Positions 8,780 through 44,021 of a DNA stretch of 54,744 nt are shown in pieces; the first letter of the stretch is position 1; every line of letters starts with the position of its first letter. The notes beneath the pieces were generated by a model. It was not told the origin of the DNA. It saw only the letters and a program-made list of their open reading frames with translations, and did not search any database. The stretch is from Anaerolineales bacterium (lineage in GTDB: Bacteria; Chloroflexota; Anaerolineae; UBA1429), in assembly GCA_039680625.1 (NCBI GenBank), contig JBDKSN010000075.1, positions 1-54,744 on the forward strand, given 5' to 3'. A program made the translations under genes and the position numbers.

Positions 8780-9808
8780 ATGCTGCAAGAGCTCGAACGA
8801 ATCGAGACCGAGGCCAAGGCCAAGCTGGCCCTGGTGACGACCGCCGATGCGCTAGAGGCATGGCGGGCCGAGTTTCTGGGCAAGAAGGGGGCACTGACTG
8901 CGGCGCTCCGCTCATTGGGCAAGATGCCGCCTGAAGAGCGCCCCGCCGCTGGCCAGCGAGCCAATCAACTGCGCGCCGAGCTCGAGGCGCTGCTGGCCGA
9001 GAAAGAGGAGCAGTTGGCCCAAGAGGCGCTCACTGCCGAGCTTGCGGCGGGGGCGATCGATGTACGCCTGCCGGGGCGGCCTCAAGCCCTGGGCACCCTA
9101 CACATCACCTCGCAGACCTTGCGCCGCATCACCGACATCTTTCACGGCATGGGCTTTCAGGTGTATCGCTCGGGAGAGGTCGAGGACGATGTCACCAACT
9201 TCCAGTTGCTCAACCTGCCACCCGATCATCCCGCGCGCGATATGTGGAGCACTTTTTACCTCACCGACCCCGGCTTGCTGCTGCGAACGCACACCTCGCC
9301 AGGGCAGATTCACGCCATGCGGCACTATTACCCCGAGCCGTTCCGCGTGATCCTACCCGGTAAGTGCTATCGCTTTGAGCAAGTCACCTCGCGGCACGAG
9401 TTCATGTTCTACCAGGTCGAGGGGTTGGTGGTCGGCCACAACATCACCATGGCCGATCTCAAGGGCGTGCTGCTCAATTTCGCCCAGCAGATGTTCGGCC
9501 CCGAGCGCCGCTTGCGCTTTCGCCCGAGCTATTTCCCCTTCACCGAGCCTAGCGCCGAGGCCGATATGGATTGCGCCTTGTGCGGCGGCAAGGGCTGCCA
9601 CCTGTGCAAAGGCACGGGCTGGCTCGAGATCCTCGGCTGCGGCATGGTGCATCCGCAAGTGTTGCGCAACGGTGGCTATGACCCCGCGGTCTATAGCGGC
9701 TTTGCCTTTGGCATGGGCCCCGAGCGCATCGCGATGCTCAAGCATGGCATCGACGACATTCGCCTGTTCTATGGCGCAGACGTGCGCTTCTTGCAGCAGT
9801 TCGCCTAG
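8780..9808 (+). CDS. pheS: Phenylalanine--tRNA ligase alpha subunit
   Basis: GGAGGA RBS then ATG 8780. The sequence MLQELERIE...HPARDMWSTFY...FRPSYFPFTEPSAE...GCGMVHP..GFAFGMGPERIAM shows the class II motifs. Confidence 0.95.
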   Translation: MLQELERIETEAKAKLALVTTADALEAWRAEFLGKKGALTAALRSLGKMPPEERPAAGQRANQLRAELEALLAEKEEQLAQEALTAELAAGAIDVRLPGRPQALGTLHITSQTLRRITDIFHGMGFQVYRSGEVEDDVTNFQLLNLPPDHPARDMWSTFYLTDPGLLLRTHTSPGQIHAMRHYYPEPFRVILPGKCYRFEQVTSRHEFMFYQVEGLVVGHNITMADLKGVLLNFAQQMFGPERRLRFRPSYFPFTEPSAEADMDCALCGGKGCHLCKGTGWLEILGCGMVHPQVLRNGGYDPAVYSGFAFGMGPERIAMLKHGIDDIRLFYGADVRFLQQFA

Positions 9809-9846
9809 GGTGGCGAGGCTTGATCCATTAAGGAGGGAATGAGGAC

Positions 9847-12309
9847 ATGCGCGTTCCTCTTGGCTGGGTGAGAGACCTGGTGAGCTGGGACCTAGAGTTG
9901 CCCGCGCTCTGCGAGCGGCTGACCCTCGGCGGCCTCGAAGTGGCCGGTGTCGAACAGGTCGGCGCAGAGTGGGATCGCACCAAGATCTGGGTGGGCGAGG
10001 TGTTGCGCGTCGAACAGCATCCGAACGCCGATCGCCTGGTGCTGGCCACGGTGGACTATGGCCATGGCGTGCTGCAAGTGGTCACCGGTGCGCCCAACCT
10101 GCACGTGGGTGATCACGGGCAAAAGGTCGTGCTGGCGCTGGAAGGCGCGCGGCTCATCGACGGTCACTCGGACACGCTCCGCTATCAGACGCTCAAGCGC
10201 GGCAAGATCCGTGGCATCGAGTCGGCCGGCATGGTCTGCTCAGAGAAGGAGCTGGGCATCTCGAACGAGCACGAGGGCATCCTCATCCTCGACGCCGATG
10301 CACCCAAGGGCGTGCCCTTTGCCGACTACTATGGTGACACGGTGCTCGATCTCGACCTGACGCCCAACCTGGCGCGCTGTTTCAGCATGTTGGGTGTGGC
10401 GCGCGAGGTGGCTGCGCTCACCGGCCAGCGGTTCGTCGAACCCGAGTATCCCCTGCAGACCGAAGGGCCGGCTATTGCCGGACAAGTCGAGATCGAGGTC
10501 GCCGACCCCGACCTGTGCCCGCGCTATAGCGCCGCGCTGATTCGAGATGTGCACATCGCCCCCTCGCCGGGCTGGATGCAGCGGCGGCTCAAGCTTGCCG
10601 GCATGCGCCCGATCAACAACCTCGTCGACATCACCAACTATGTGATGCTCGAGCTGGGGCAGCCCCTGCACGCTTTTGACTATCGACGGCTGCGACCACG
10701 GGCTGCGGGGGGCGTGCCCGCGATCATCGTGCGCCGCGCCAAGCCGGGCGAGCGCATGAACACGCTCGATGGCGCGCAACACACGTTGAGCGGCCAGGAG
10801 CTGCTCATTACCGATGGCGCGGGGCCCGTGGGCATCGCCGGAGTGATGGGTGGCCTGGAAAGCGAGGTGACCGAGCAGACGGTGGACGTGCTGCTCGAGG
10901 CCGCCAATTTCGACAACATCTCGATCCGGCACACGTCGGCGGCGCTCAAGCTGCCCAGCGAGGCAGCCCAGCGCTTTGGCCGCGGCGTCGACCCCGAGCT
11001 GACGCTGGTGGCGCTCCGTCGCGCCGCGGAGCTCATGCGCACGCTGGCCGGGGGCACCGTGGCTCGGGGTTTTGTCGACCTCTACCCGGGCAAGGCGCCG
11101 CTGCGCCACGTGACCTTTCCCCTGGCCGAAGTGCCGCGGCAGCTGGGCATCTCTCTGGCCAGACAAGAGGTCGAGGGCATGCTCACCCTGCTGGGCTTTG
11201 GCTGCGCGCCGACGGGGGACGGCACGGCGCTCGAGGTGGTGGTGCCGAGCTATCGGCTAGACGTATCGATTCCAGCCGACCTGATCGAGGAGGTCGCGCG
11301 CCTGTATGGCTATGACCGTCTGCCGACCACGCTCATCGCCGAAGAGATGCCGCACTTGCGTCCCGAACCCGCGCTCGAGCGCGAAGAGCGCGCTCGAGAC
11401 GTGCTGGTGGCCTGCGGCCTCACCGAGATCATCACCTATTCGCTGAACACGCTCGAAAGCGAGGCCCGGCTGGCGCCCGGCGCGCCGTTGCCCGATGGCA
11501 CCCGCTATTTGCGCGTGGCCAACCCGCTCTCGCGCGAGACCGAATACCTGCGCCAAACGTTGATGGCGAGCGTGCTCGAAGCGGTGGCGCGCAACCTGCG
11601 CTTTGTCGAGCGTGTGGCGGTGTTCGAGATCGGCCACATCTACCTGCGGCAAGAGGGCCAGGCGTTACCGGCCGAGCCGACCAAGATCTGCATCGCCCTC
11701 ACCGGGCCGCGCGAGCCGCGCTCTTGGCTGGCCCAAGAGAGCGCGAACATGGATTACTATGACTTGAAGGGCATCGTCGAGGCCCTCTGCCGACACCTGG
11801 GCGTCCAAGGAGCCTCGTTCGAGCCGGGCACTCACTCGGCGCTGCACCCCGGCCGCGCGGCTCACTTGCTGGTCAACGGCCAGGTGGCCGGCGTGTTGGG
11901 CGAGCTACACCCCCTGGTGCGGCAGCAGTTCGACCTGCCCGAGCAGGCCGTGTGCCTCGCCGAGCTCGACCTGGCGATGCTGATCGCGGCGGCGCAGCCC
12001 GTGGCGCGCCATACGCCCATCTCGCGTATGCCCACCGCCAAGCTAGACCTGGCAGTAGTGGTCGACGAGGCAGTGCCCAGCGACCGCGTAGAGGCGACGA
12101 TCCGCGAGACGGGCGGTGCATTGCTCGTCGATGTGGTGCTGTTCGACGTCTATCGCGGCCAGCAGCTCGGCGCGGGCAAAAAGAGCCTGGCCTACAGCCT
12201 GACCTTCCAGTCGCCCGACAAGACGTTGACCAGCGAAGAGGCGGTGCAACAGCGCGACCGTATCGTTCGAGCGTTGCAGCGCGCCTTCCAGGCCGAGATC
12301 CGCAGCTAG
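9847..12309 (+). CDS. pheT: Phenylalanine--tRNA ligase beta subunit
   Basis: 820 aa with an N-terminal tRNA-binding (EMAP-like) domain (VGEVLRVEQHPNADRLVL), B3/4 and B5 domains, and a C-terminal FDX-ACB domain (DVYRG..LG.GKKSLAYSLTFQ). Confidence 0.95.
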   Translation: MRVPLGWVRDLVSWDLELPALCERLTLGGLEVAGVEQVGAEWDRTKIWVGEVLRVEQHPNADRLVLATVDYGHGVLQVVTGAPNLHVGDHGQKVVLALEGARLIDGHSDTLRYQTLKRGKIRGIESAGMVCSEKELGISNEHEGILILDADAPKGVPFADYYGDTVLDLDLTPNLARCFSMLGVAREVAALTGQRFVEPEYPLQTEGPAIAGQVEIEVADPDLCPRYSAALIRDVHIAPSPGWMQRRLKLAGMRPINNLVDITNYVMLELGQPLHAFDYRRLRPRAAGGVPAIIVRRAKPGERMNTLDGAQHTLSGQELLITDGAGPVGIAGVMGGLESEVTEQTVDVLLEAANFDNISIRHTSAALKLPSEAAQRFGRGVDPELTLVALRRAAELMRTLAGGTVARGFVDLYPGKAPLRHVTFPLAEVPRQLGISLARQEVEGMLTLLGFGCAPTGDGTALEVVVPSYRLDVSIPADLIEEVARLYGYDRLPTTLIAEEMPHLRPEPALEREERARDVLVACGLTEIITYSLNTLESEARLAPGAPLPDGTRYLRVANPLSRETEYLRQTLMASVLEAVARNLRFVERVAVFEIGHIYLRQEGQALPAEPTKICIALTGPREPRSWLAQESANMDYYDLKGIVEALCRHLGVQGASFEPGTHSALHPGRAAHLLVNGQVAGVLGELHPLVRQQFDLPEQAVCLAELDLAMLIAAAQPVARHTPISRMPTAKLDLAVVVDEAVPSDRVEATIRETGGALLVDVVLFDVYRGQQLGAGKKSLAYSLTFQSPDKTLTSEEAVQQRDRIVRALQRAFQAEIRS

Positions 12310-12638: not shown

Positions 12639-13895
12639 ATGGACAGTATCGAACGGAGGCGTCAACGTCCCCTGGGCCTCACCGACCTCTTTGGCGAGCA
12701 GGCCGCGGCTTATGCGGCTCTGGAGCGCTTGCTCATCGAGCAGTTCGAGCGTTGGGGCTATCAGCGGGTGGTGTTGCCCACCATCGGCTACGACGAGACC
12801 CTCTCGACGCAGGCCAGCCCGCGGTTGAGCGAGCAACTGTATCGCTTCTTTGATCGCGATGGCCGCGCCTTGGCCCTGCGCCCAGACATGACTGTGCCGG
12901 TCGCTCGCCTGGTGGGCACCACCCTGTACGATCAGCCGTTGCCGCTGCGCCTGTACTACTCGGGCAAGGTGTTCCGCTACGAGCAGCCCCAGGCCGGGCA
13001 GCGCCGCGAGTTCACCCAAGTGGGCATCGAGCTGATCGGCGCCGCGACTGCCGCGGCCGACGCCGAGGTGATCGGCATGGCCGTCGAGGCACTGCGCGCG
13101 CTCGGCGTCAGCACGTTTCAGCTCAACTTGGGGCAGGTGGACTTTCTCAAGGGCATGCTCAACGGCATGAACCTGTCTGCCGAGGGACTCGCGGCGCTCG
13201 AACAGGCGATCAACCGGCGGAGCCGTGTGGAGCTGCAGCGCACGTTGGCTGCCCTGGCCATCACGGGAGACACTGCCGAGGCGATCTTGGCATTGCCCAG
13301 CTTGTGTGGAGACGCCGAGGTCATCGAGCGGGCGCGCCATCTGACCGGCAATCCCGCAGCCCAGGCCGCGTTGGACCACGTGGCACAGGTCTATCGCCTG
13401 CTCGCGCTGGATGGTTATGCCGAGCACATCATCCTCGACTTGGGCGAAGTGCGCAGCATGGACTATTACACAGGCATCACCTTCCACGGCTATGTCTCTG
13501 GCCTGGGCTTTCACGTGCTCTCCGGCGGGCGGTATGACCGCCTGATCGGCCACTTTGGCCCGCAGATGCCGGCGGTAGGTTTTGCCATGAGCATCGAACG
13601 CTCGCTGCTGGTGGCGCACTCCGCGCCGCCCGCAGGCCCCGACCTGGTATTGCCCGCCTGCGAGCACGCACAATGTCGGCAGTTGGCCGCTCTGGCACGC
13701 TCGCTCGGGCTGCGGGTAGAGTCCGACCTGTTGGGGCGCACGGGGGCAGCGTTGGCCGCGGCTGCCGAGGCTCGTGGCGCTGCCCGAGCCATCTTGTCGT
13801 GCGACGGCGAGCGTTGTATCCTGGCCGACGCCACCGGCGCACGAGAAGTGAGCCTCGCGGTGCTGCAAGAGGAGGTGCGTACGTGGAGCCGTTGA
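12639..13895 (+). CDS. hisZ: ATP phosphoribosyltransferase regulatory subunit HisZ (HisRS paralog)
   Basis: 418 aa with LRPDMTVPVAR, FRYEQPQAGQRREFTQVGIELIG and SGGRYDRL. It lies immediately upstream of, and overlaps, a short-form hisG. Confidence 0.85.
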   Translation: MDSIERRRQRPLGLTDLFGEQAAAYAALERLLIEQFERWGYQRVVLPTIGYDETLSTQASPRLSEQLYRFFDRDGRALALRPDMTVPVARLVGTTLYDQPLPLRLYYSGKVFRYEQPQAGQRREFTQVGIELIGAATAAADAEVIGMAVEALRALGVSTFQLNLGQVDFLKGMLNGMNLSAEGLAALEQAINRRSRVELQRTLAALAITGDTAEAILALPSLCGDAEVIERARHLTGNPAAQAALDHVAQVYRLLALDGYAEHIILDLGEVRSMDYYTGITFHGYVSGLGFHVLSGGRYDRLIGHFGPQMPAVGFAMSIERSLLVAHSAPPAGPDLVLPACEHAQCRQLAALARSLGLRVESDLLGRTGAALAAAAEARGAARAILSCDGERCILADATGAREVSLAVLQEEVRTWSR

Positions 13896-14533
13896 CCTTT
13901 GCTCTGCCCAAGGGGCGACTGCAAGATGAGGTGCTCGCCCTCCTCGGCGAAGCCGGCTATGCGCTCGATGCCGACGTAGGGCGCCGGCTCGTCTTTGAAG
14001 ATCGCAGCGGTGCGTTGCGCTTTATCATGGCCAAGCCGGCCGACGTGCCCACTTATGTCGAATATGGTGCGGCGGCGTTGGGCGTGGTGGGCCTCGATGT
14101 ACTGCGCGAGGGTCGCTGGGATGTGATCGAGCCTCTGGCGCTGGGCGTGGGCGTATGCCGCCTATCTCTGGCAGGGCCAGCCTCGTGGCGCGGACGCAAC
14201 CTGCGCCTTCAACCCGGGCTGCGCGTGGCCAGCAAGTATCCGCGCCTGACACACGAGTTCTTTCAGGCACAAGGCATCTCAGCCGAGATCATCTACCTCA
14301 ACGGCTCTGTCGAGCTGGCGCCCGCGGTTGGCCTGGCTGACCTGTTGGTCGATCTGGTGCAGAGTGGCCGCACCCTGGTCGAGAACGGCCTGATCGAGCT
14401 ACAGACTATCTTGCCGTCCGAGGCCGTGCTCATCGTCAACCGCGCCGCGCACAAGATGCAGTTCGAGCGGATCGAGGCCATCGTCGACCGCCTGGCTGCG
14501 GCGGTAACGCGCCGCGAGGAGGCACAGGCATGA
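13883..14533 (+). CDS. hisG: ATP phosphoribosyltransferase, short form
   Basis: GTG 13883 gives VEPLTFALPKGRLQDEVL...AKPADVPTYVEYGAAALGVVGLDVL...DLVQSGRTLVENGL, 216 aa. It overlaps the hisZ stop. Confidence 0.9.
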   Translation: MEPLTFALPKGRLQDEVLALLGEAGYALDADVGRRLVFEDRSGALRFIMAKPADVPTYVEYGAAALGVVGLDVLREGRWDVIEPLALGVGVCRLSLAGPASWRGRNLRLQPGLRVASKYPRLTHEFFQAQGISAEIIYLNGSVELAPAVGLADLLVDLVQSGRTLVENGLIELQTILPSEAVLIVNRAAHKMQFERIEAIVDRLAAAVTRREEAQA

Positions 14534-36763: not shown

Positions 36764-36824
36764 GCCTTGTGAGGGGCGGTACAGGCCCTGTCTAGCTTGG
36801 TGTTTTACGCCCGATGAGGAGGAT

Positions 36825-39152
36825 ATGATGCGCACCAAACTGTTCTCACTCTTGAGTGTGGCGCTGGCACTGGCCATGGTGCTCAGCGGCTGCGCTCAAC
36901 CCACGCCTACGCCAGTGCCTCAGACCCCGACGCCGGTGTCTGAGCAGGCTGAGAAGCCCACCGCTGCACCCAAGGTGTTCAAGGTGGGCTATGTCACGGA
37001 CACGGGCGGCATCGACGACAAGTCGTTCAATGCCACCTCCTGGAAGGGTGTCCAGATGGCGATCGAGAAGTTGGGCATCGAGGGCAGCTACCTCGAGTCG
37101 CAGCAGCAGACCGACTATGCCAAGAACATCACCGAGTTTGTGCAACAAGGCGCAGACCTGATCATCACGGCGGGCTATCTGCTGGGCGACGATACGGCCA
37201 AGGCTGCGGTCGCGAACCCCGATGTCAAATTCGCTATCGTGGACTATTCCTACGATCCCCCGATCGACAACGTGCTCGGCCTGACCTTTGCCACCGATGA
37301 GGCCACCTTCTTGGCCGGTTATCTGGCGGCGGGCATGACCAAGACGGGCGTCGTCGGTACGTTCGGCGGCATGGAGATCCCTTCGGTGACCATCTTCATG
37401 GATGGGTTCGCCCAGGGTGTCTGGTACTATAACCAGGCGCATGGCACCAACGTACAGGTGCTCGGCACCGACTACTATGTGGGCAACTTTGAGTCCACAG
37501 ACGATGGCCGCCGCGCCGGTGAGAGCCTGATGGACGAGGGCGCCGACATCATCATGCCTGTGGCTGGCCCCGTGGGCATGGGCACGGCCGCTGTGTTGCA
37601 AGAGCGTGGCGGCCTGCTGATCGGCGTGGACGCAGACTGGACCGTCTCGGCCCCCGAGTACAAAGACATTGTGCTCAAGTCTGTGCTCAAGAACATGGAT
37701 GTGTCGGTCTACAACGTCATCGAGCAGGCGATGAAGGGCAACTTTGCTGGCGGCACCTATGTGGGCACGCTGGCGAACAACGGTGTCGGCCTGGCCCCGG
37801 GCGGAGTGGAAGACACGATCCCCGCTGAGCTGGCGCAAGAGCTCGACGCGATCAGCAAAGACATCATCGCGGGCAAGATCTGGACGGGGTGGGGCGAGGC
37901 GCCTACCGGCGTCGAGACCGGCGTTGTGTTTGGCGAGCCCGTCAACCTGATCTTTTGGCACAACCAAGCTCCTGACAGCTTCCGTGGCAAGCTGCTCGAC
38001 CAGATCATCGCCGACTTTGAGGCCAAGTATCCCGAGATCCACGTCATTGCGACCTACCAGGGCGACTATACCGAGCTGTACAAAAAGCTCGTGGCGGCCA
38101 TCTCGGCCGGCAATACGCCCGACCTGGCCGTGTCGTATCCTTCGATGGTCTCTGACTATCTGAAGGCTGGTGTTGTGCAAGAGCTCGATCCTTACATCGA
38201 AGATCCGGACATCGGCCTGACCACCGAAGACATGTCAGACATCTACCCCGGCTACCTCGCTGAGGGGCGCTTCCCGGCCTATGACAACAAGTACTATACC
38301 TTCCCGTTCGCCAAGAGCGCTGAGGGAATGTGGTACAACCTCGACCTGCTGAAGCAGGTCGGCTATGACGCCCCGCCCAAGACGTGGGAAGAGTTCGAGG
38401 AGATGTGCCTGGCCGTCCACGACCAGACGGGCAAGATTGGCTACGCCTACTATGAGAACGCCTCGACGTTCGACGCCTGGCTGTACAGCCGCGGCGTATC
38501 GCGCGTGAACGAGGATCAGACTGAGGCGATCTTTAACAGCCCCGAGGCCGTCGAACAGCTCGCGATGATGAAGCGCCTGATCGATGCCGGCGCGGCGGTC
38601 AAGCCTGAAGGCTCGTACGCCGACCAGGCCGAGTTCGCCAAGGGCAACGTAGCCTTCACCTTTGGCTCGACGTCGGGCACGTACTACTATCAGCAAGCCA
38701 TCCAAGAGAGCGGCAACCTGGTCAAGGAATATGGGCACACGCTCCCGCCGCAAGCCGATCCGGAGAATCCGGGCACGGTGCTCTACGGCGGCAGCCTGGT
38801 CATGTTCAAGACCACTGAGAACCAGCAAAAGGCCGCCTGGCTGTTCATGAAGTTCTTTGCCTCGACCGAGCAGACGGCCAAGTGGGGCAGCATCTCGGGC
38901 TATATGCCCGTGCGAGCCTCGGCCTCTGCCTTGCTCAAGGACTATTTCGCCGAGAACCCCATCGTCAAGCAGCAGGTGGAGGAGATCATGCCGGCTGCGC
39001 GACCTGGTCCCTCCGTCGCGGGTGAGCAAGAGATGCGCACCTACGTCGAAGAGGCCATGACCAAGGTGTTCGAGGGCATCGCCGATCCGCAGACGGCGTT
39101 GGATGAGGCGGTTCGGCTCTCGAACGAGGCTCTGGCTCGCGGGCGGCAATAG
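36825..39152 (+). CDS. Lipoprotein fusing two substrate-binding proteins: N-terminal BMP/PnrA-family (nucleoside-type) SBP plus C-terminal family-1 (sugar-type) extracellular solute-binding protein
   Basis: GAGGAGG RBS then ATG 36825/36828. Signal peptide and lipobox MMRTKLFSLLSVALALAMVLSGC. BMP motifs: VGYVTDTGGIDDKSFN, GTFGGMEIP, IGVDADW. From about nt 37944 the family-1 SBP pattern appears: NLIFWHNQ..., FEAKYPEIHV, AAISAGNTPDLAV, YYTFPFAKSAEGMWYN, PKTWEEF. Confidence 0.85.
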   Translation: MMRTKLFSLLSVALALAMVLSGCAQPTPTPVPQTPTPVSEQAEKPTAAPKVFKVGYVTDTGGIDDKSFNATSWKGVQMAIEKLGIEGSYLESQQQTDYAKNITEFVQQGADLIITAGYLLGDDTAKAAVANPDVKFAIVDYSYDPPIDNVLGLTFATDEATFLAGYLAAGMTKTGVVGTFGGMEIPSVTIFMDGFAQGVWYYNQAHGTNVQVLGTDYYVGNFESTDDGRRAGESLMDEGADIIMPVAGPVGMGTAAVLQERGGLLIGVDADWTVSAPEYKDIVLKSVLKNMDVSVYNVIEQAMKGNFAGGTYVGTLANNGVGLAPGGVEDTIPAELAQELDAISKDIIAGKIWTGWGEAPTGVETGVVFGEPVNLIFWHNQAPDSFRGKLLDQIIADFEAKYPEIHVIATYQGDYTELYKKLVAAISAGNTPDLAVSYPSMVSDYLKAGVVQELDPYIEDPDIGLTTEDMSDIYPGYLAEGRFPAYDNKYYTFPFAKSAEGMWYNLDLLKQVGYDAPPKTWEEFEEMCLAVHDQTGKIGYAYYENASTFDAWLYSRGVSRVNEDQTEAIFNSPEAVEQLAMMKRLIDAGAAVKPEGSYADQAEFAKGNVAFTFGSTSGTYYYQQAIQESGNLVKEYGHTLPPQADPENPGTVLYGGSLVMFKTTENQQKAAWLFMKFFASTEQTAKWGSISGYMPVRASASALLKDYFAENPIVKQQVEEIMPAARPGPSVAGEQEMRTYVEEAMTKVFEGIADPQTALDEAVRLSNEALARGRQ

Positions 39153-39299: not shown

Positions 39300-40856
39300 A
39301 TGACCCCCATTCTGCAGCTAGAGGGCATCACCAAGGTCTTCCCCGGTGTGGTAGCCAACGACGATATCGACCTGACGCTGCAACAGGGAGAGATCCTCGC
39401 TCTATTGGGCGAGAACGGCGCCGGCAAGAGTACCCTGATGAACATCCTTTACGGCCTCTATGCGCCCACCGCTGGGCGCATCGTTATTCGTGGGCAGCAG
39501 GTGACCATTACGGGGCCTCACGATGCCATCGCCCAAGGCATCGGCATGGTGCATCAGCACTTTATGCTCGTACCACCGCTCACCGTCACCGAGAATGTCA
39601 TCCTCGGCAACGAGCCTATCCGCCACGGACTGTTTCTCGACCGCAACCGAGCGGCGGCGCGAATCCGGCAGATCTCGGCCGACTATGGCCTGGAGGTCGA
39701 TCCCTCTGCGGTGGTGAGCACGCTGCCTGTGGGGGCACAGCAACGCGTCGAGATCATCAAGGTGCTCTATCGCAGCGCCGATGTGCTGATCCTCGACGAG
39801 CCGACGGCGGTACTCACCCCCCAAGAGGTCGACGACCTATTTGCGATCGTCCGCCGGCTGGTGGCCGGGGGCAAGTCGATCATCTTTATCACGCACAAGC
39901 TCAAAGAGGTGATGGCCCTCGCCGACCGCATCGTGGTGCTGCGTCGCGGGCGCGTGGTGGGGGAAACCACGCCCGCCGAGGCCACCGAAGAGATGCTGGC
40001 GGCCATGATGGTCGGCCGTGAGGTGTCGCTGGCGGTGGCCAAGACGCCCGCCAAACCTGCACAGCCCGTGTTGCAGGTCGAGGGCCTCCATGTGTTGAGC
40101 GACCGACACCAGCTGGCCGTACAAGATGTCTCGTTCACGGTGCGCAGCGGAGAGATCGTGGGCCTGGCCGGCGTGCAGGGCAATGGACAGACCGAACTCG
40201 TCGAGGCGCTGGCCGGGCAACGCGAGGTGCTCTCGGGCAGCGTGCGGATCGGCGGCCACGACGTCACGCGCGCCTCGCCACGGCGTCGTGCGCAACTGGG
40301 CGTGGCCTATGTGCCTGAAGATCGCCAACGCGACGGCCTGGTGCTGGACTTTCCCGTGGCCGACAACCTCATCCTCAACACATACTATCAGCCGCCCTTT
40401 GCCCGGGGGATCCTCTTGCAGCGCGCAGCGATTCGGGCCACGGCTGAGCGCCTGGTCAAGGATTTCGATGTACGCACGCCGAGCATCGATACGGCGGTGG
40501 CCAACCTATCGGGCGGCAACCAGCAAAAGGTCATCGTGGCGCGCGAGTTCGACCGCCCAGTCGTTTTGCTGCTCGCCTCGCAACCCACGCGCGGCTTGGA
40601 TGTCGGCTCGATCGAGTACATCCATGCCCGCATCGTCGAAAAGCGCGACCACGGCGCCGGCGTGTTGCTCGTCTCCTCGGAGCTAGACGAGATCATGGAG
40701 CTCGCCGACCGCATCCTCGTCATGTTCCGCGGGGCAATCATGGCCGACCTGCCGGCAGGCAGCACCACGCGAGAGCAAATCGGCTTGTTGATGGCCGGTG
40801 GCCGCCACGAGCAGCCCCAACCGGCACCGGAGGAAGAGGAGGTGGGTGGCCGATGA
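39300..40856 (+). CDS. ABC transporter ATP-binding protein with two fused nucleotide-binding domains (BMP/nucleoside-sugar type)
   Basis: 518 aa. Walker A GENGAGKST, signatures LPVGAQQRVEI and LSGGNQQKV, Walker B LILDEPT and LLASQPTRGLD. Confidence 0.95.
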   Translation: MTPILQLEGITKVFPGVVANDDIDLTLQQGEILALLGENGAGKSTLMNILYGLYAPTAGRIVIRGQQVTITGPHDAIAQGIGMVHQHFMLVPPLTVTENVILGNEPIRHGLFLDRNRAAARIRQISADYGLEVDPSAVVSTLPVGAQQRVEIIKVLYRSADVLILDEPTAVLTPQEVDDLFAIVRRLVAGGKSIIFITHKLKEVMALADRIVVLRRGRVVGETTPAEATEEMLAAMMVGREVSLAVAKTPAKPAQPVLQVEGLHVLSDRHQLAVQDVSFTVRSGEIVGLAGVQGNGQTELVEALAGQREVLSGSVRIGGHDVTRASPRRRAQLGVAYVPEDRQRDGLVLDFPVADNLILNTYYQPPFARGILLQRAAIRATAERLVKDFDVRTPSIDTAVANLSGGNQQKVIVAREFDRPVVLLLASQPTRGLDVGSIEYIHARIVEKRDHGAGVLLVSSELDEIMELADRILVMFRGAIMADLPAGSTTREQIGLLMAGGRHEQPQPAPEEEEVGGR

Positions 40857-42319
40857 AGCGTTCTCCACGCGATCGTCAGCAGCGAGCACAGCCCTTCTGG
40901 ATGCCCTTGCTCGCCATTGTGACGGCCCTCATCCTGGGCGGCATCCTGATCATCGTCTCTGACCTGGAGGTGATTGCCGCCTTCACGCGCATCCCGCGGC
41001 AGGTGGCCGTGCCCTTCACCGACCCCTCGACGCAGGTCTCTCTCGAAGAGGCCCTCTGGAAACACCCCAACGAGGTGCAGGTCGGTGACGGGGTGCTGGT
41101 GGACGGGCGCACGTTGCGCGTCGTCGAAGAGGTGACCGACCCGAGCAAGCAGATCGCCCTGAGCGAGGCGCGCAAGCTCTATCCTACGCTGGGCCCTGGC
41201 GTCACCATCTACTACAACTTTTGGCAAAAGCCCACGGTGGGCCTCAAGGCGGCCTGGCACTCGGTCAAGACGGCCTACGTGGCCCTTTTCGAGGGCTCGA
41301 TCGGCAACCCCAAGCAGATGGTGCAGGCGCTGGCGGCCTGGCTCAAGGGCGACCCTTCGCTGCTGAGTCGGGCGTTCTATCCCCTCTCCGAGAGCCTGGT
41401 TACCTCGACGCCCTACATCCTGACGGGGCTGGCGGTGGCGCTGGGCTTTCGGGCGGGGCTGTTCAACATCGGCGCCGAGGGGCAGTACTTTGTCGGCGGC
41501 CTTACCTCGGTATGGGTGGGCTATAGCCTCAAGGGCCTGCCCATCTATGTGCACCTGCCACTCACCATCCTGGCCGGCGCAGTCGGCGGCGGCCTGTGGG
41601 GCGCCATACCGGGATTGCTCAAAGCCAAGACAGGCGGGCATGAAGTGATCAACACGATCATGATGAACTATATCGCCTTTGCTTTGAGCGACTGGCTGCT
41701 CAACGGTCCCATGATGCGCCCCGGCGGCTTTCGGCCCATCTCTCCCGAGATCGAACCCAGCGCTCGGCTGCCACGCTTTTTTGGGGGCGACATCCGCTTC
41801 CACGCGGGGTTCTTTGTGGCCTTGGCCATGGCTGCGCTCGTCTATTGGTTGTTGTTCAAGACGACGATCGGCTATGAGCTGCGGACGGTGGGCGCCAACC
41901 CACGCGCGGCGCGCTATGCAGGCATCAGCCTGACGCGCAACATCGTGCTGGCCATGTTCCTTAGCGGCGGCCTGGCGGGCATGGCGGGTGCAAACGACAT
42001 CGCCGGCGTCATCTACTACATGCCCAACGCCTTTTCGGCGGGCTATGGTTGGGATTCGATCGCCCTGGCGCTGTTGGGCCGCAGCCATCCGGTGGGTGTG
42101 GTGCTGGCGGCGCTGCTCTTTGGCACGCTACGCGCTGGAGCTACGCGCATGCAGTCGGTGGCCCAGATCCCCATCGACATCATCTCGATCTTGCAGGCGA
42201 TGATCATCATCTTTATCGCCGCGCCTGAGATCATCCGCTCACTCTATCGCCTCAAGAAGCCCAGCACCGCAGAGCTGGCCTTGGCCGGCGGTGATACCGC
42301 TGAGGGAGCACAGGCATGA
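40853..42319 (+). CDS. ABC transporter permease (BMP-type, NupB/RnsC-like) with an N-terminal extension of about 180 aa
   Basis: The core starts around TPYILTGLAVALGFRAGLFNIGAEGQ. It is preceded by one TM helix (LLAIVTALILGGILIIV) and a soluble segment of about 140 aa. Confidence 0.9.
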   Translation: MKRSPRDRQQRAQPFWMPLLAIVTALILGGILIIVSDLEVIAAFTRIPRQVAVPFTDPSTQVSLEEALWKHPNEVQVGDGVLVDGRTLRVVEEVTDPSKQIALSEARKLYPTLGPGVTIYYNFWQKPTVGLKAAWHSVKTAYVALFEGSIGNPKQMVQALAAWLKGDPSLLSRAFYPLSESLVTSTPYILTGLAVALGFRAGLFNIGAEGQYFVGGLTSVWVGYSLKGLPIYVHLPLTILAGAVGGGLWGAIPGLLKAKTGGHEVINTIMMNYIAFALSDWLLNGPMMRPGGFRPISPEIEPSARLPRFFGGDIRFHAGFFVALAMAALVYWLLFKTTIGYELRTVGANPRAARYAGISLTRNIVLAMFLSGGLAGMAGANDIAGVIYYMPNAFSAGYGWDSIALALLGRSHPVGVVLAALLFGTLRAGATRMQSVAQIPIDIISILQAMIIIFIAAPEIIRSLYRLKKPSTAELALAGGDTAEGAQA

Positions 42320-43584
42320 GCACCACCCAGCCCGTGATCATCGACCCCCATGCTCGTCGTCGTAGCCGCACGATGGGTGTCTTTCTCATCTTGATCGGGC
42401 TGCTCATCTATGGCGCGTTTGTGCGTTCTTCCAGTGTCGGGCAGTTGGCGACTTTTGGGATGAACCCGGGCCGGCAGACGCAAGCGATGCGCATCCCCGA
42501 CATCACGCTGCCGGTGCTCACCAGCCTGTATGTCATGTCGCTGCTCTCGGTGGCCCTGGGCGTGGGGCAGTTGGTGTGGGGTTGGCGGCGCGCCGAGGGC
42601 CTGGTGTTGGGCCTGGTGGCGGGGCTGCTGGCGTTGGCCTTTCTCACCTGGGCCGCGCGCGGCCAGAGCCTCAATCTAGTGGGGATCCTCGAAGCGGCGG
42701 TGCAGCGCGCGACGCCCATCGCTTTGGCGGCGCTGAGCGGCGTCATCTGCGAGCGCTCGGGCATCATCAACATCGCCATCGAGGGCATGATGCTCACGGC
42801 GGCGATGGTCTCATCGCTGGTCGGCAGTGTGACGCACAACCTAACGATCGCGCTGTTGGTCTCGATCTTGGTATCGGGCCTGTTAGGGGCGCTGCTCGCG
42901 GTGCTATCGATCCGCTACAAGGTGAACCAGATCATCAGCGGCACGGCGATCAACATCCTCGCCACGGGCGCGACGAGCTTTATCAGCGCCAAGTTCATGG
43001 CTCCCTACGAGTATCTCAACACCCCGGGCAAGTTTGCCAACTGGCCAGTGCCCCTGCTCTCACGCATTCCGGTCATCGGGCCAGTGTTCTTTGAGAGCAA
43101 CGTGGTGGTCTATCTCTTGTTCATCCTGTTGATCGTAGTGCACGTGATGCTCTACTACACGCGCTGGGGCCTGCGCACCCGAGCCATCGGCGAGCATCCG
43201 CGGGCAGCCGACACGTTGGGTGTCGACGTGCTGCGGATGCGCTACATCAACGTGTTTGTTGGCGGGATGGTGGCCGGCCTGGGCGGCGTCTTTCTCGTGC
43301 TGGGCTCGGTGCCGCGCTTTGACGAGCTGATGACCGCAGGCAAGGGCTATATCGGCCTGGCGGCCATGATCTTTGGCAACTGGAACCCGTTTGGTGCGTT
43401 CGGCGCCTCACTCATCTTTGGCTTCACCGAGACGTTCCAGGCCAAGCTGCAGATCCTCAAGGTGCCCATCCCCTCGCAGTTCATGCGCATGCTGCCCTAT
43501 CTGATCACAATGATCGTCTTGGCGGGCGTGGTGGGGCGTTCAGTGCCGCCCGCCGCCGAGGGCCAGGTGTACGAGAAGCAGTAG
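42316..43584 (+). CDS. ABC transporter permease (BMP-type, NupC/RnsD-like) with an N-terminal TM extension of about 110 aa
   Basis: The core starts around ATPIALAALSGVICERSGIINIAIEGMML. The start overlaps the upstream gene by 4 nt. Confidence 0.9.
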   Translation: MSTTQPVIIDPHARRRSRTMGVFLILIGLLIYGAFVRSSSVGQLATFGMNPGRQTQAMRIPDITLPVLTSLYVMSLLSVALGVGQLVWGWRRAEGLVLGLVAGLLALAFLTWAARGQSLNLVGILEAAVQRATPIALAALSGVICERSGIINIAIEGMMLTAAMVSSLVGSVTHNLTIALLVSILVSGLLGALLAVLSIRYKVNQIISGTAINILATGATSFISAKFMAPYEYLNTPGKFANWPVPLLSRIPVIGPVFFESNVVVYLLFILLIVVHVMLYYTRWGLRTRAIGEHPRAADTLGVDVLRMRYINVFVGGMVAGLGGVFLVLGSVPRFDELMTAGKGYIGLAAMIFGNWNPFGAFGASLIFGFTETFQAKLQILKVPIPSQFMRMLPYLITMIVLAGVVGRSVPPAAEGQVYEKQ

Positions 43585-43655: not shown

Positions 43656-44021
43656 TCAGCTCTGCATCTGCAACTGAATATCTGGCTGGTCGATATAGAG
43701 GAGGATCAGCGCCGACAGCGCCATCGAAATGGCAAAGGTGACGGCCAGCTCGGTGTTGAAGCCGCCCTCTTCGGGCGGGCGCATGACGTTGCCCACGATC
43801 ACGAGCAGCCGCACGATGATGTTGAACCCCTGCACAAAGATGCTCGCGGTGCGGCTCGCTCCCCGACGCAGGATCAGGAACACCCCCAGCACGCCAAACA
43901 ACACCAAGATCGCGCCCCAAGCCACGGCGTTGAGGCTCTTGAGCACGTTGAGCGGCATGATGATGATGGGGATGAACTGAAAGATCGCGACCAAGATCAG
44001 GCCACGTGGCAGCTTTCTCAT
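43656..44021 (-). CDS. Hypothetical membrane protein (121 aa, about 4 TM helices) with its own strong promoter
   Basis: MRKLPRGLILVAIFQFIPIIIMPL.... GGGGGAGG RBS. Minus-strand promoter TTGACA-17-TAGAAT at 44052-44080. The gene is visibly less GC-rich than its neighbours. Confidence 0.6.
   Translation of the reverse strand: MRKLPRGLILVAIFQFIPIIIMPLNVLKSLNAVAWGAILVLFGVLGVFLILRRGASRTASIFVQGFNIIVRLLVIVGNVMRPPEEGGFNTELAVTFAISMALSALILLYIDQPDIQLQMQS

Follow-up and report, generated by a model that had tools for sequence, protein, structure and literature searches.

Several described ATP-binding cassette (ABC) importers bear on the gene treated here, which lies at positions 36825-39152 (+ strand) of a contig from an uncultured Anaerolineales bacterium (Chloroflexota; GenBank assembly GCA_039680625.1, contig JBDKSN010000075.1); the whole contig, 54,744 nucleotides, was analysed and is referred to as the window. 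In GlnPQ of Lactococcus lactis, two substrate-binding domains (SBDs), SBD1 and SBD2, stand in tandem and differ in ligand specificity (PMC8025302). The present gene resembles GlnPQ in that several complete binding domains, joined by short linkers, share one polypeptide. However, the GlnPQ domains come from a single family and are joined to the permease of the one translocator that they serve, whereas the fusion described here unites domains of different classes, carries a lipid anchor and has no transmembrane domain. An earlier note on this DNA held that such tandems were known within a single family and knew of no cross-family example. Literature searches agreed: they returned work on GlnPQ and OpuA, no cross-family case, and no published cross-class receptor fusion serving two translocators.

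Each half of the gene product has relatives of its own. The N-terminal half shares its fold, motifs, lipobox and operon partners with PnrA/TmpC of Treponema pallidum (2fqw), pneumococcal PnrA (6y9u) and Lbp (7x0r), but those are single-domain proteins. The nearest models to the C-terminal half, and to two permeases that we call permF and permG, come from the UgpB-UgpAEC system of Escherichia coli (4aq4) and from Mycobacterium tuberculosis UgpB, a glycerophosphocholine binder, and a characteristic Tyr/Ser set is kept. Here, however, the scores fall far below the equivalog cut-offs, W169, W172 and E66 are absent, the permeases carry extra segments of ~100 aa, and the gene for the substrate-binding protein (SBP) is detached and fused to another receptor, with no adjacent UgpC. 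An SBP of Thermus thermophilus that binds the dinucleotide U3G (7c0f-7c19) is among the best sequence and structure neighbors of the C-terminal half (template-modelling (TM) score 0.82-0.84, 26% identity), although identity is low and two contacts, N81 and Q274, are changed. Finally, ATPases of the MsiK/MalK type, such as Streptomyces MsiK, serve several CUT1 importers in trans and so provide a precedent for importer parts encoded away from their permeases; the detached part here, by contrast, is the receptor, which normally sets specificity, and not the ATPase alone.

Our analysis favors a reading in which one lipid-anchored protein carries two independent binding modules, each serving a different ABC importer, and we regard this as likely. 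In the mechanism that we propose, the N-terminal PnrA/BMP-type head would take nucleosides and dock on the importer encoded directly downstream, which combines an ATPase having two nucleotide-binding domains (NBDs) with two BPD_transp_2 permeases. The C-terminal, UgpB-like head would be the relocated cognate receptor of the type-I pair permF-permG, located elsewhere in the genome (contig C79:915-3269, - strand), whose own SBP gene is lost and which would be energised by the single stand-alone MsiK/MalK-type ATPase on contig C155. The cargo of this second importer would be an organophosphate, possibly a nucleotide or a phosphodiester rather than glycerol-3-phosphate (G3P), and would be processed in the cell by an inositol-monophosphatase-family (IMPase) enzyme whose gene always follows permG.

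A two-domain lipoprotein

The gene is an uninterrupted open reading frame (ORF) of 775 codons encoding 775 aa; the database copy, of 774 aa, starts from the second Met. Direct reading of the sequence places a Shine-Dalgarno motif, GAGGAGG (36816..36822, +), ahead of the ATG-ATG at 36825/36828, and orthologues begin MR. The translation opens with a lipoprotein signal peptide ending in the lipobox LSGC (Cys23; 36825..36893, +), modelled as a helix at residues 6-20 followed by disorder, and the start G-C-A/T-Q-P-T-P-T-P at the lipobox is common to all fusion orthologues. A Pro/Thr-rich tether follows (residues 24-51; 36894..36977, +), with a predicted local distance difference test (pLDDT) score <50 and a nonsynonymous-to-synonymous rate ratio (dN/dS) of 0.26, the weakest constraint of any part. 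The N-terminal head, a BMP/PnrA-type binding domain predicted to be the nucleoside receptor of the adjacent importer (residues 52-352; 36978..37880, +), matches Pfam Bmp (PF02608) at residues 54-350 with an E value of 3.3e-53 and 181 bits (cut-off 24.1), covering profile positions 3-293 of 301. The C-terminal head (residues 373-775 plus stop; 37941..39152, +) is placed by Pfam, Foldseek and a tree as a family-1 (CUT1) domain of the UgpB clade, and is the predicted permF/permG receptor. It matches SBP_bac_8 (PF13416) at residues 393-714 (E 1.4e-45, 157 bits, cut-off 27) and SBP_bac_1 (PF01547) at residues 389-684 (E 9e-34, 118 bits, cut-off 26).

Between the heads lies a junction (residues 353-372; 37881..37940, +) composed of the WTGWGE end of Bmp and a short variable linker, a coil in the model. 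The translated stretch that spans it, IIAGKIWTGWGEAPTGVETGVVFGEPVNLIFWH (residues 346-379), contains no Cys, stop or hydrophobic stretch; among orthologues the junction differs in length by at most 13 residues and is 32-90% identical. An AlphaFold2 model, computed with an alignment of 27 orthologues as input, consists of two confident bilobed domains (pLDDT ~80 in the N-terminal half, mostly >90 in the C-terminal half) with a coil at 349-372 between them. With a pTM of 0.62, the model is consistent with two beads on a string whose mutual orientation is not fixed. The earlier note had described one lipoprotein in which a BMP-family and a family-1 SBP are each complete, with an LSGC lipobox at its start and no second signal, lipobox or stop at the junction. 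The profile matches, the translation and the two separately folded, coil-linked domains of the model bear out that description.

The source of the window is a draft assembly of 218 contigs, a setting in which two neighboring genes might be merged by misassembly or faulty gene calling. That this happened here is so improbable that it can be set aside. At least 10 independent assemblies, one of them a single-contig genome, contain orthologous fusions with 61-84% identity, and 12 independent fusion sequences from NCBI, JGI, ENA and Logan assemblies share the same in-frame junction, WTGWGE-linker-FWHxQAPDxFRG. Copies are 84% (P0003), 79% (P0004) and 66-68% (P0005-P0009) identical to the window's protein, and there are further partial copies. 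The single-contig genome is the 3.34-Mb metagenome-assembled genome (MAG) "Anaerolineae bacterium AnMBR.bin314" (G150); a second MAG, L040, carries a copy at 82% identity. Compared with its nearest orthologue, the gene shows dN/dS values of 0.18 (Bmp half), 0.06 (junction) and 0.13 (family-1 half), and both halves are under purifying selection. Moreover, every free orthologue has a signal peptide, which the C-terminal half of the fusion lacks. The two-domain fusion, which the earlier note had taken for a genuine one, is thus confirmed, and an assembly artefact is excluded for practical purposes. Among the 301 genomes of the class that were searched, the full fusion was confined to this genus, plus a copy in G030 that is cut by a contig end.

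The N-terminal head and its importer

The best match of the N-terminal half in the PDB is Lbp of Clostridium thermocellum (7x0r, E 1e-52), ahead of BmpA, PnrA and TmpC, and it has the motifs DDKSFN (DxSFN) and GVDADW (GVDxD) in common with Lbp. The name of that protein, "laminaribiose-binding protein", is misleading: the Lbp crystal held guanosine in its pocket, and a knockout of the transporter still grew on laminaribiose (PMC9601137). Judged from these resemblances, the N-terminal half probably binds nucleosides.

Directly downstream on the same strand lie a double-NBD ABC ATPase (39300..40856, +; Pfam ABC_tran in two stretches, 70-79% identity in orthologous operons) and the BPD_transp_2 permeases A (PermA; 40853..42319, +) and B (PermB; 42316..43584, +), both assigned by Pfam. 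This is a BMP-type transporter and nothing else, as the earlier note had stated, and the operon is conserved in L006, L008, L036 and L040. The sole other Bmp-family gene in the genome is a distant paralogue on contig C81 that has its own permeases. Because no other close BMP receptor is encoded, the window's importer would depend on the N-terminal head.

The operon ends beside a conserved gene for a 121-aa protein (p121; 43656..44021, -) that has no Pfam match and is found by tblastn at 44-68% identity in L006, L008, L032, L034 and L036. It lies directly downstream of PermB at every related locus and adjoins the SBP even in L034, from which the transporter is deleted. PermA carries a ~150-aa extracytoplasmic insert after its first transmembrane helix, with the conserved core after it, and the insert gives a weak NusA_N-like match. 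Relatives keep it whether or not they have the fusion (G230, L032). We considered it as a docking platform for the extra head and ruled this out, since the insert is also present in G230, where Bmp is single-domain.

The C-terminal head and its probable ligand

The earlier note had called the C-terminal half a family-1 protein of the sugar type. The family assignment stands; the domain is, however, UgpB-like, that is, of an organophosphate type, and not plainly of a sugar type. Its nearest NCBIfam model is UgpB (NF008211), at 96 bits against an equivalog cut-off of 411, and it is therefore not an equivalog. Among solved structures it is closest to E. coli UgpB, the Thermus dinucleotide (U3G)-binding SBP and M. 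tuberculosis UgpB. In a Foldseek search with the modelled C-terminal half, UgpB and the Thermus protein came out on top with TM scores of 0.82-0.85, and solved CUT1 SBPs in general gave 0.82-0.87.

Y415, S498, S615 and Y693 align with UgpB Y42, S121, S247 and Y323 and are conserved in all or at least 90% of the 27 orthologues; the position aligned with UgpB R374 is also invariant or nearly so. The UgpB residue numbers Y42, S121, S247, Y323 and R374 are those of the E. coli protein. Y415, Y438, S440, S498, S615-617, Y621 and Y654 are invariant pocket residues across the orthologues. Two Tyr and two Ser form the phosphate-coordinating set shared by binders of G3P, glycerophosphocholine (GPC) and U3G (PMC12718374). 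In the alignment, the residues that hold the glycerol moiety are absent: UgpB W169 falls in a gap, W172 is replaced by Tyr and E66 by Pro. Contact positions of the Thermus protein, taken from the names of its deposited mutants (7c0f), were compared likewise: Y56, F79, N81, S127, Y224, T240, Y246 and Q274 correspond to Y, Y, S, S, Y, S, Y and Y, so that four of the eight are identical, two conservative and two (N81, Q274) changed, at an overall identity of only 26%.

Because the phosphate set is kept, the glycerol residues are lost, permF and permG most resemble UgpA and UgpE, and an IMPase-family gene is invariably linked to them, the C-terminal half probably binds an organophosphate other than G3P. 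That this ligand is nucleotide-like would be sensible beside a nucleoside receptor, but we offer it as speculation. One further clue was dropped. A nadC-nadA-nadB cluster lies upstream of permF-permG-SBP in G017 and G105 and had suggested an NAD-related or dinucleotide cargo; the same cluster adjoins an unrelated SBP_bac_3-Bmp-Bmp gene in L055. In L022, L023 and L055 it adjoins differing SBP and permease genes, which probably reflects lineage synteny and not a functional link.

A candidate translocator for the C-terminal head

A profile search found no BPD_transp_1 permease anywhere on the window's contig. To this extent the earlier note was right that the family-1 domain has no partner of the MalFGK type; on another contig, however, there is an orphan UgpAE-like pair. 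A scan of the genome gave 49 BPD_transp_1 matches, and every CUT1-type pair adjoins a family-1 SBP, except for two that are truncated where their contigs stop and one intact pair, on C79. The latter consists of permF (410 aa; C79:2037-3269, -), a UgpA-like permease with no SBP gene at its locus, and permG (368 aa; C79:915-2021, -), which is UgpE-like; an IMPase-family gene (C79:117-899, -) follows permG after 16 nt. UgpA and UgpE are their closest NCBIfam models, with scores far below the equivalog cut-offs. Each permease is lengthened by a hydrophobic insert of ~100 aa, which probably adds two transmembrane helices. Such pairs, seen also at L023:5800-8154 and L035:530-2830, define a rare CUT1 subfamily, present in only 5 of the 301 Anaerolineae genomes.

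The link between this pair and the C-terminal head comes from comparison. Free-standing homologues of the C-terminal half, at 58-62% identity, occur in G006, G105 and G017 of the 301 genomes. On the metagenomic contig L035, as in G017 and G105, a free SBP with 58-64% identity to the C-terminal half directly follows permF-permG genes that share the unusual lengths of the C79 pair. The free SBP of G006 precedes an IMPase-family gene, after which comes a type-I phosphodiesterase. The C79 permeases are 59% (permF) and 54% (permG) identical over their full length to their G017 counterparts, values that match the 58-62% found for the SBP domain; the C79 IMPase is 46% identical to the gene after the free SBP of G006. 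(An early guess from ORF sizes, that the free homologues in G017 and G105 stood within BMP-type operons, was abandoned when Pfam identified the neighbors as nadA, nadB and two BPD_transp_1 permeases.)

The two partners also occur together. At a threshold of E <= 1e-60, permF orthologues were found in five of the 301 genomes (G000, G150, G030, G017 and G105), all five of which have an orthologue of the C-terminal half; that orthologue is present in six genomes altogether, giving a hypergeometric P of 3e-10 for the co-occurrence. A tight permF-permG-IMPase cluster without an SBP recurs in G000, in the complete genome G150, and in G301 and G302, and all four carry the C-terminal domain. Purifying selection acts on these orphan genes: dN/dS is 0.16 for permF, 0.21 for permG and 0.15 for the IMPase gene. 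Within the window's genome, the C-terminal half is the sole member of its orthogroup, and other family-1 SBPs are at most 34% identical to it. The lack of an ATPase gene beside permF-permG might be held against their function, an argument that we rejected: no CUT1 locus here has an ATPase of its own, and one stand-alone MsiK/MalK-type gene exists (C155:~13155-14387).

Weighing the proposed two-importer arrangement

Several observations weigh against this arrangement. We infer the docking of the C-terminal half on permF-permG from synteny, co-occurrence and matching divergence only. The ligand call is the weakest step, made at 23-26% identity to solved proteins. The sixth genome with the domain, G006, has a free SBP and no permF match at the threshold used, although that genome is 87% complete. 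A G030-like lineage has the fusion without a BMP transporter after it. Two further points, on orphan receptors and on a locus called L032, lead to different accounts of the C-terminal head.

Six other family-1 SBPs in this genome have no adjacent permeases (on contigs C185, C118, C83, C169 and C165, and at C78:19406), and one of them could in principle serve permF-permG. The C-terminal domain might then have left transport altogether, to act as a spacer or scaffold, a ligand sink or a sensor. In the free orthologues a mere disordered tether fills the position taken here by the Bmp domain, which indicates that bulk at this place is tolerated. We nevertheless consider a non-transport role unlikely. 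The pocket residues are invariant in the 27 orthologues, and dN/dS for the C-terminal half is 0.13, as noted above. The six orphans are at most 34% identical to the orthogroup that natively stands beside permF-permG, and each of the four genomes whose permF-permG lacks an SBP has retained the domain.

Alternatively, both heads could feed the adjacent BMP-type translocator, the family-1 head broadening its substrate range much as SBD1 and SBD2 do in GlnPQ. The fusion gene does head the BMP operon in G000, G150, L008 and L040, and in L041 the same C-terminal domain stands immediately before the BMP ATPase. The main support is L032, where a lipoprotein with the family-1 domain only heads a BMP-type operon whose PermA and PermB are intact, an arrangement equally compatible with a functional tie of the family-1 domain to the BMP translocator. 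However, the L032 ATPase (9647-11135) is split by one frameshift near 10200-10225, which could be a real pseudogene mutation or an error of metagenome assembly. In L034, moreover, a lipoprotein with only the family-1 domain persists beside p121, and the Bmp domain and the entire BMP transporter are gone. The orthologous Bmp-ATPase-PermA-PermB-p121 operon of G230, from a sister genus of the same family, is 66-70% identical and has a plain, single-domain Bmp protein; neither an orthologue of the C-terminal half nor permF was found there in the 301-genome searches. Across those genomes the domain tracks permF-permG, and a non-BMP head in another multi-headed protein, that of L054, comes with its own PhnCE translocator.

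General knowledge of these receptors points the same way: family-1 (cluster D) SBPs dock on BPD_transp_1 permeases of the MalFG/UgpAE type and not on BPD_transp_2. Taking all this together, we find it quite unlikely that both heads share the adjacent translocator. That a cluster D head docks productively on a BPD_transp_2 translocator, with L032 a working and not a decaying arrangement, seems to us very unlikely; if true, it would be a receptor-translocator pairing across ABC importer classes.

History of the fusion

In a maximum-likelihood tree, the family-1 domain forms one orthogroup with support of 100/100. Its basal clade contains free SBPs only, which adjoin permF-permG wherever the context is known. 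A derived clade (support 88/85) holds all 12 fusion sequences with five free forms nested among them, so that the tree requires at least five changes between the fused and free states. The nested free forms retain the signal and linker of the fusion type (GCA-R/Q-PTPTP, DTSNILGE), and in L032 and L034 they occupy the chromosomal position of the fusion. For these reasons, repeated loss of the Bmp head is the simplest reading of the nested forms. The best reading overall is that the fusion is an old feature of a single Anaerolineae clade and was reversed there several times.

Free orthologues have their own lipobox followed by a disordered tether of 45-95 residues before the binding domain, and in the fusion the Bmp domain evidently takes the place of this tether. 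The tethers themselves differ in composition. Eight free orthologues (P0129, P0130, P0132 and P0134-P0138) have long Lys/Glu/Val/Thr repeats such as VVVEKEV and TKEVTKEI; members of the fusion clade have Pro/Thr/Ala-rich tethers instead.

Implications and multi-headed relatives

Annotation of ABC importers and prediction of transport capacity start from the premise that a gene encodes a single receptor and lies next to the translocator it serves. Neither part of this premise holds here: one gene would supply receptors for two importer classes, and permF-permG seem orphan unless the fused domain is recognised. Database names such as "basic membrane protein A" or "extracellular solute-binding protein" hide half of the function. 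Tethering may bring several gains, among them co-expressed receptors for related nutrients (nucleoside and organophosphate), cheaper lipoprotein processing and placement in the envelope. A natural series for assessing such benefits exists in the free SBP beside permF-permG, the fusion, the secondary losses of the Bmp head, and the sister genus with its plain Bmp protein. Anaerolineae are abundant in anaerobic digesters.

The nearest relatives of matching length are mostly tandem Bmp-Bmp lipoproteins, and there are three-headed forms as well. Tandem Bmp-Bmp proteins of ~690 aa are very common in Anaerolineae. L054 encodes a Bmp-Bmp-PhnD-like lipoprotein (P0016, 1036 aa) with PhnC (above the equivalog cut-off), PhnE, a BMP-type ATPase and two permeases in cis. 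L055 encodes an SBP_bac_3-Bmp-Bmp protein (P0117, 931 aa), with a permease of the polar-amino-acid type just upstream and no BMP translocator nearby. From these two contexts, each class of head appears to have a matching class of translocator, whose genes lie nearby or at another locus. This suggests that multi-headed receptors are a habit of the lineage and that receptors are used in a modular way throughout Anaerolineae.

Two minor features of the transporter loci may be added. At C17:6745-7524 (-), a family-8 SBP match beside a CUT1/Pot-like pair contains an in-frame TAG, and may be a pseudogene or a sequencing error. A run of UDG, RNase J and FtsK genes that flanks permF-permG (C79:3207-7619) elsewhere flanks the three-headed Bmp-Bmp-PhnD gene (L054:2289-7869), which implies that different transporter genes have settled in one chromosomal neighborhood.

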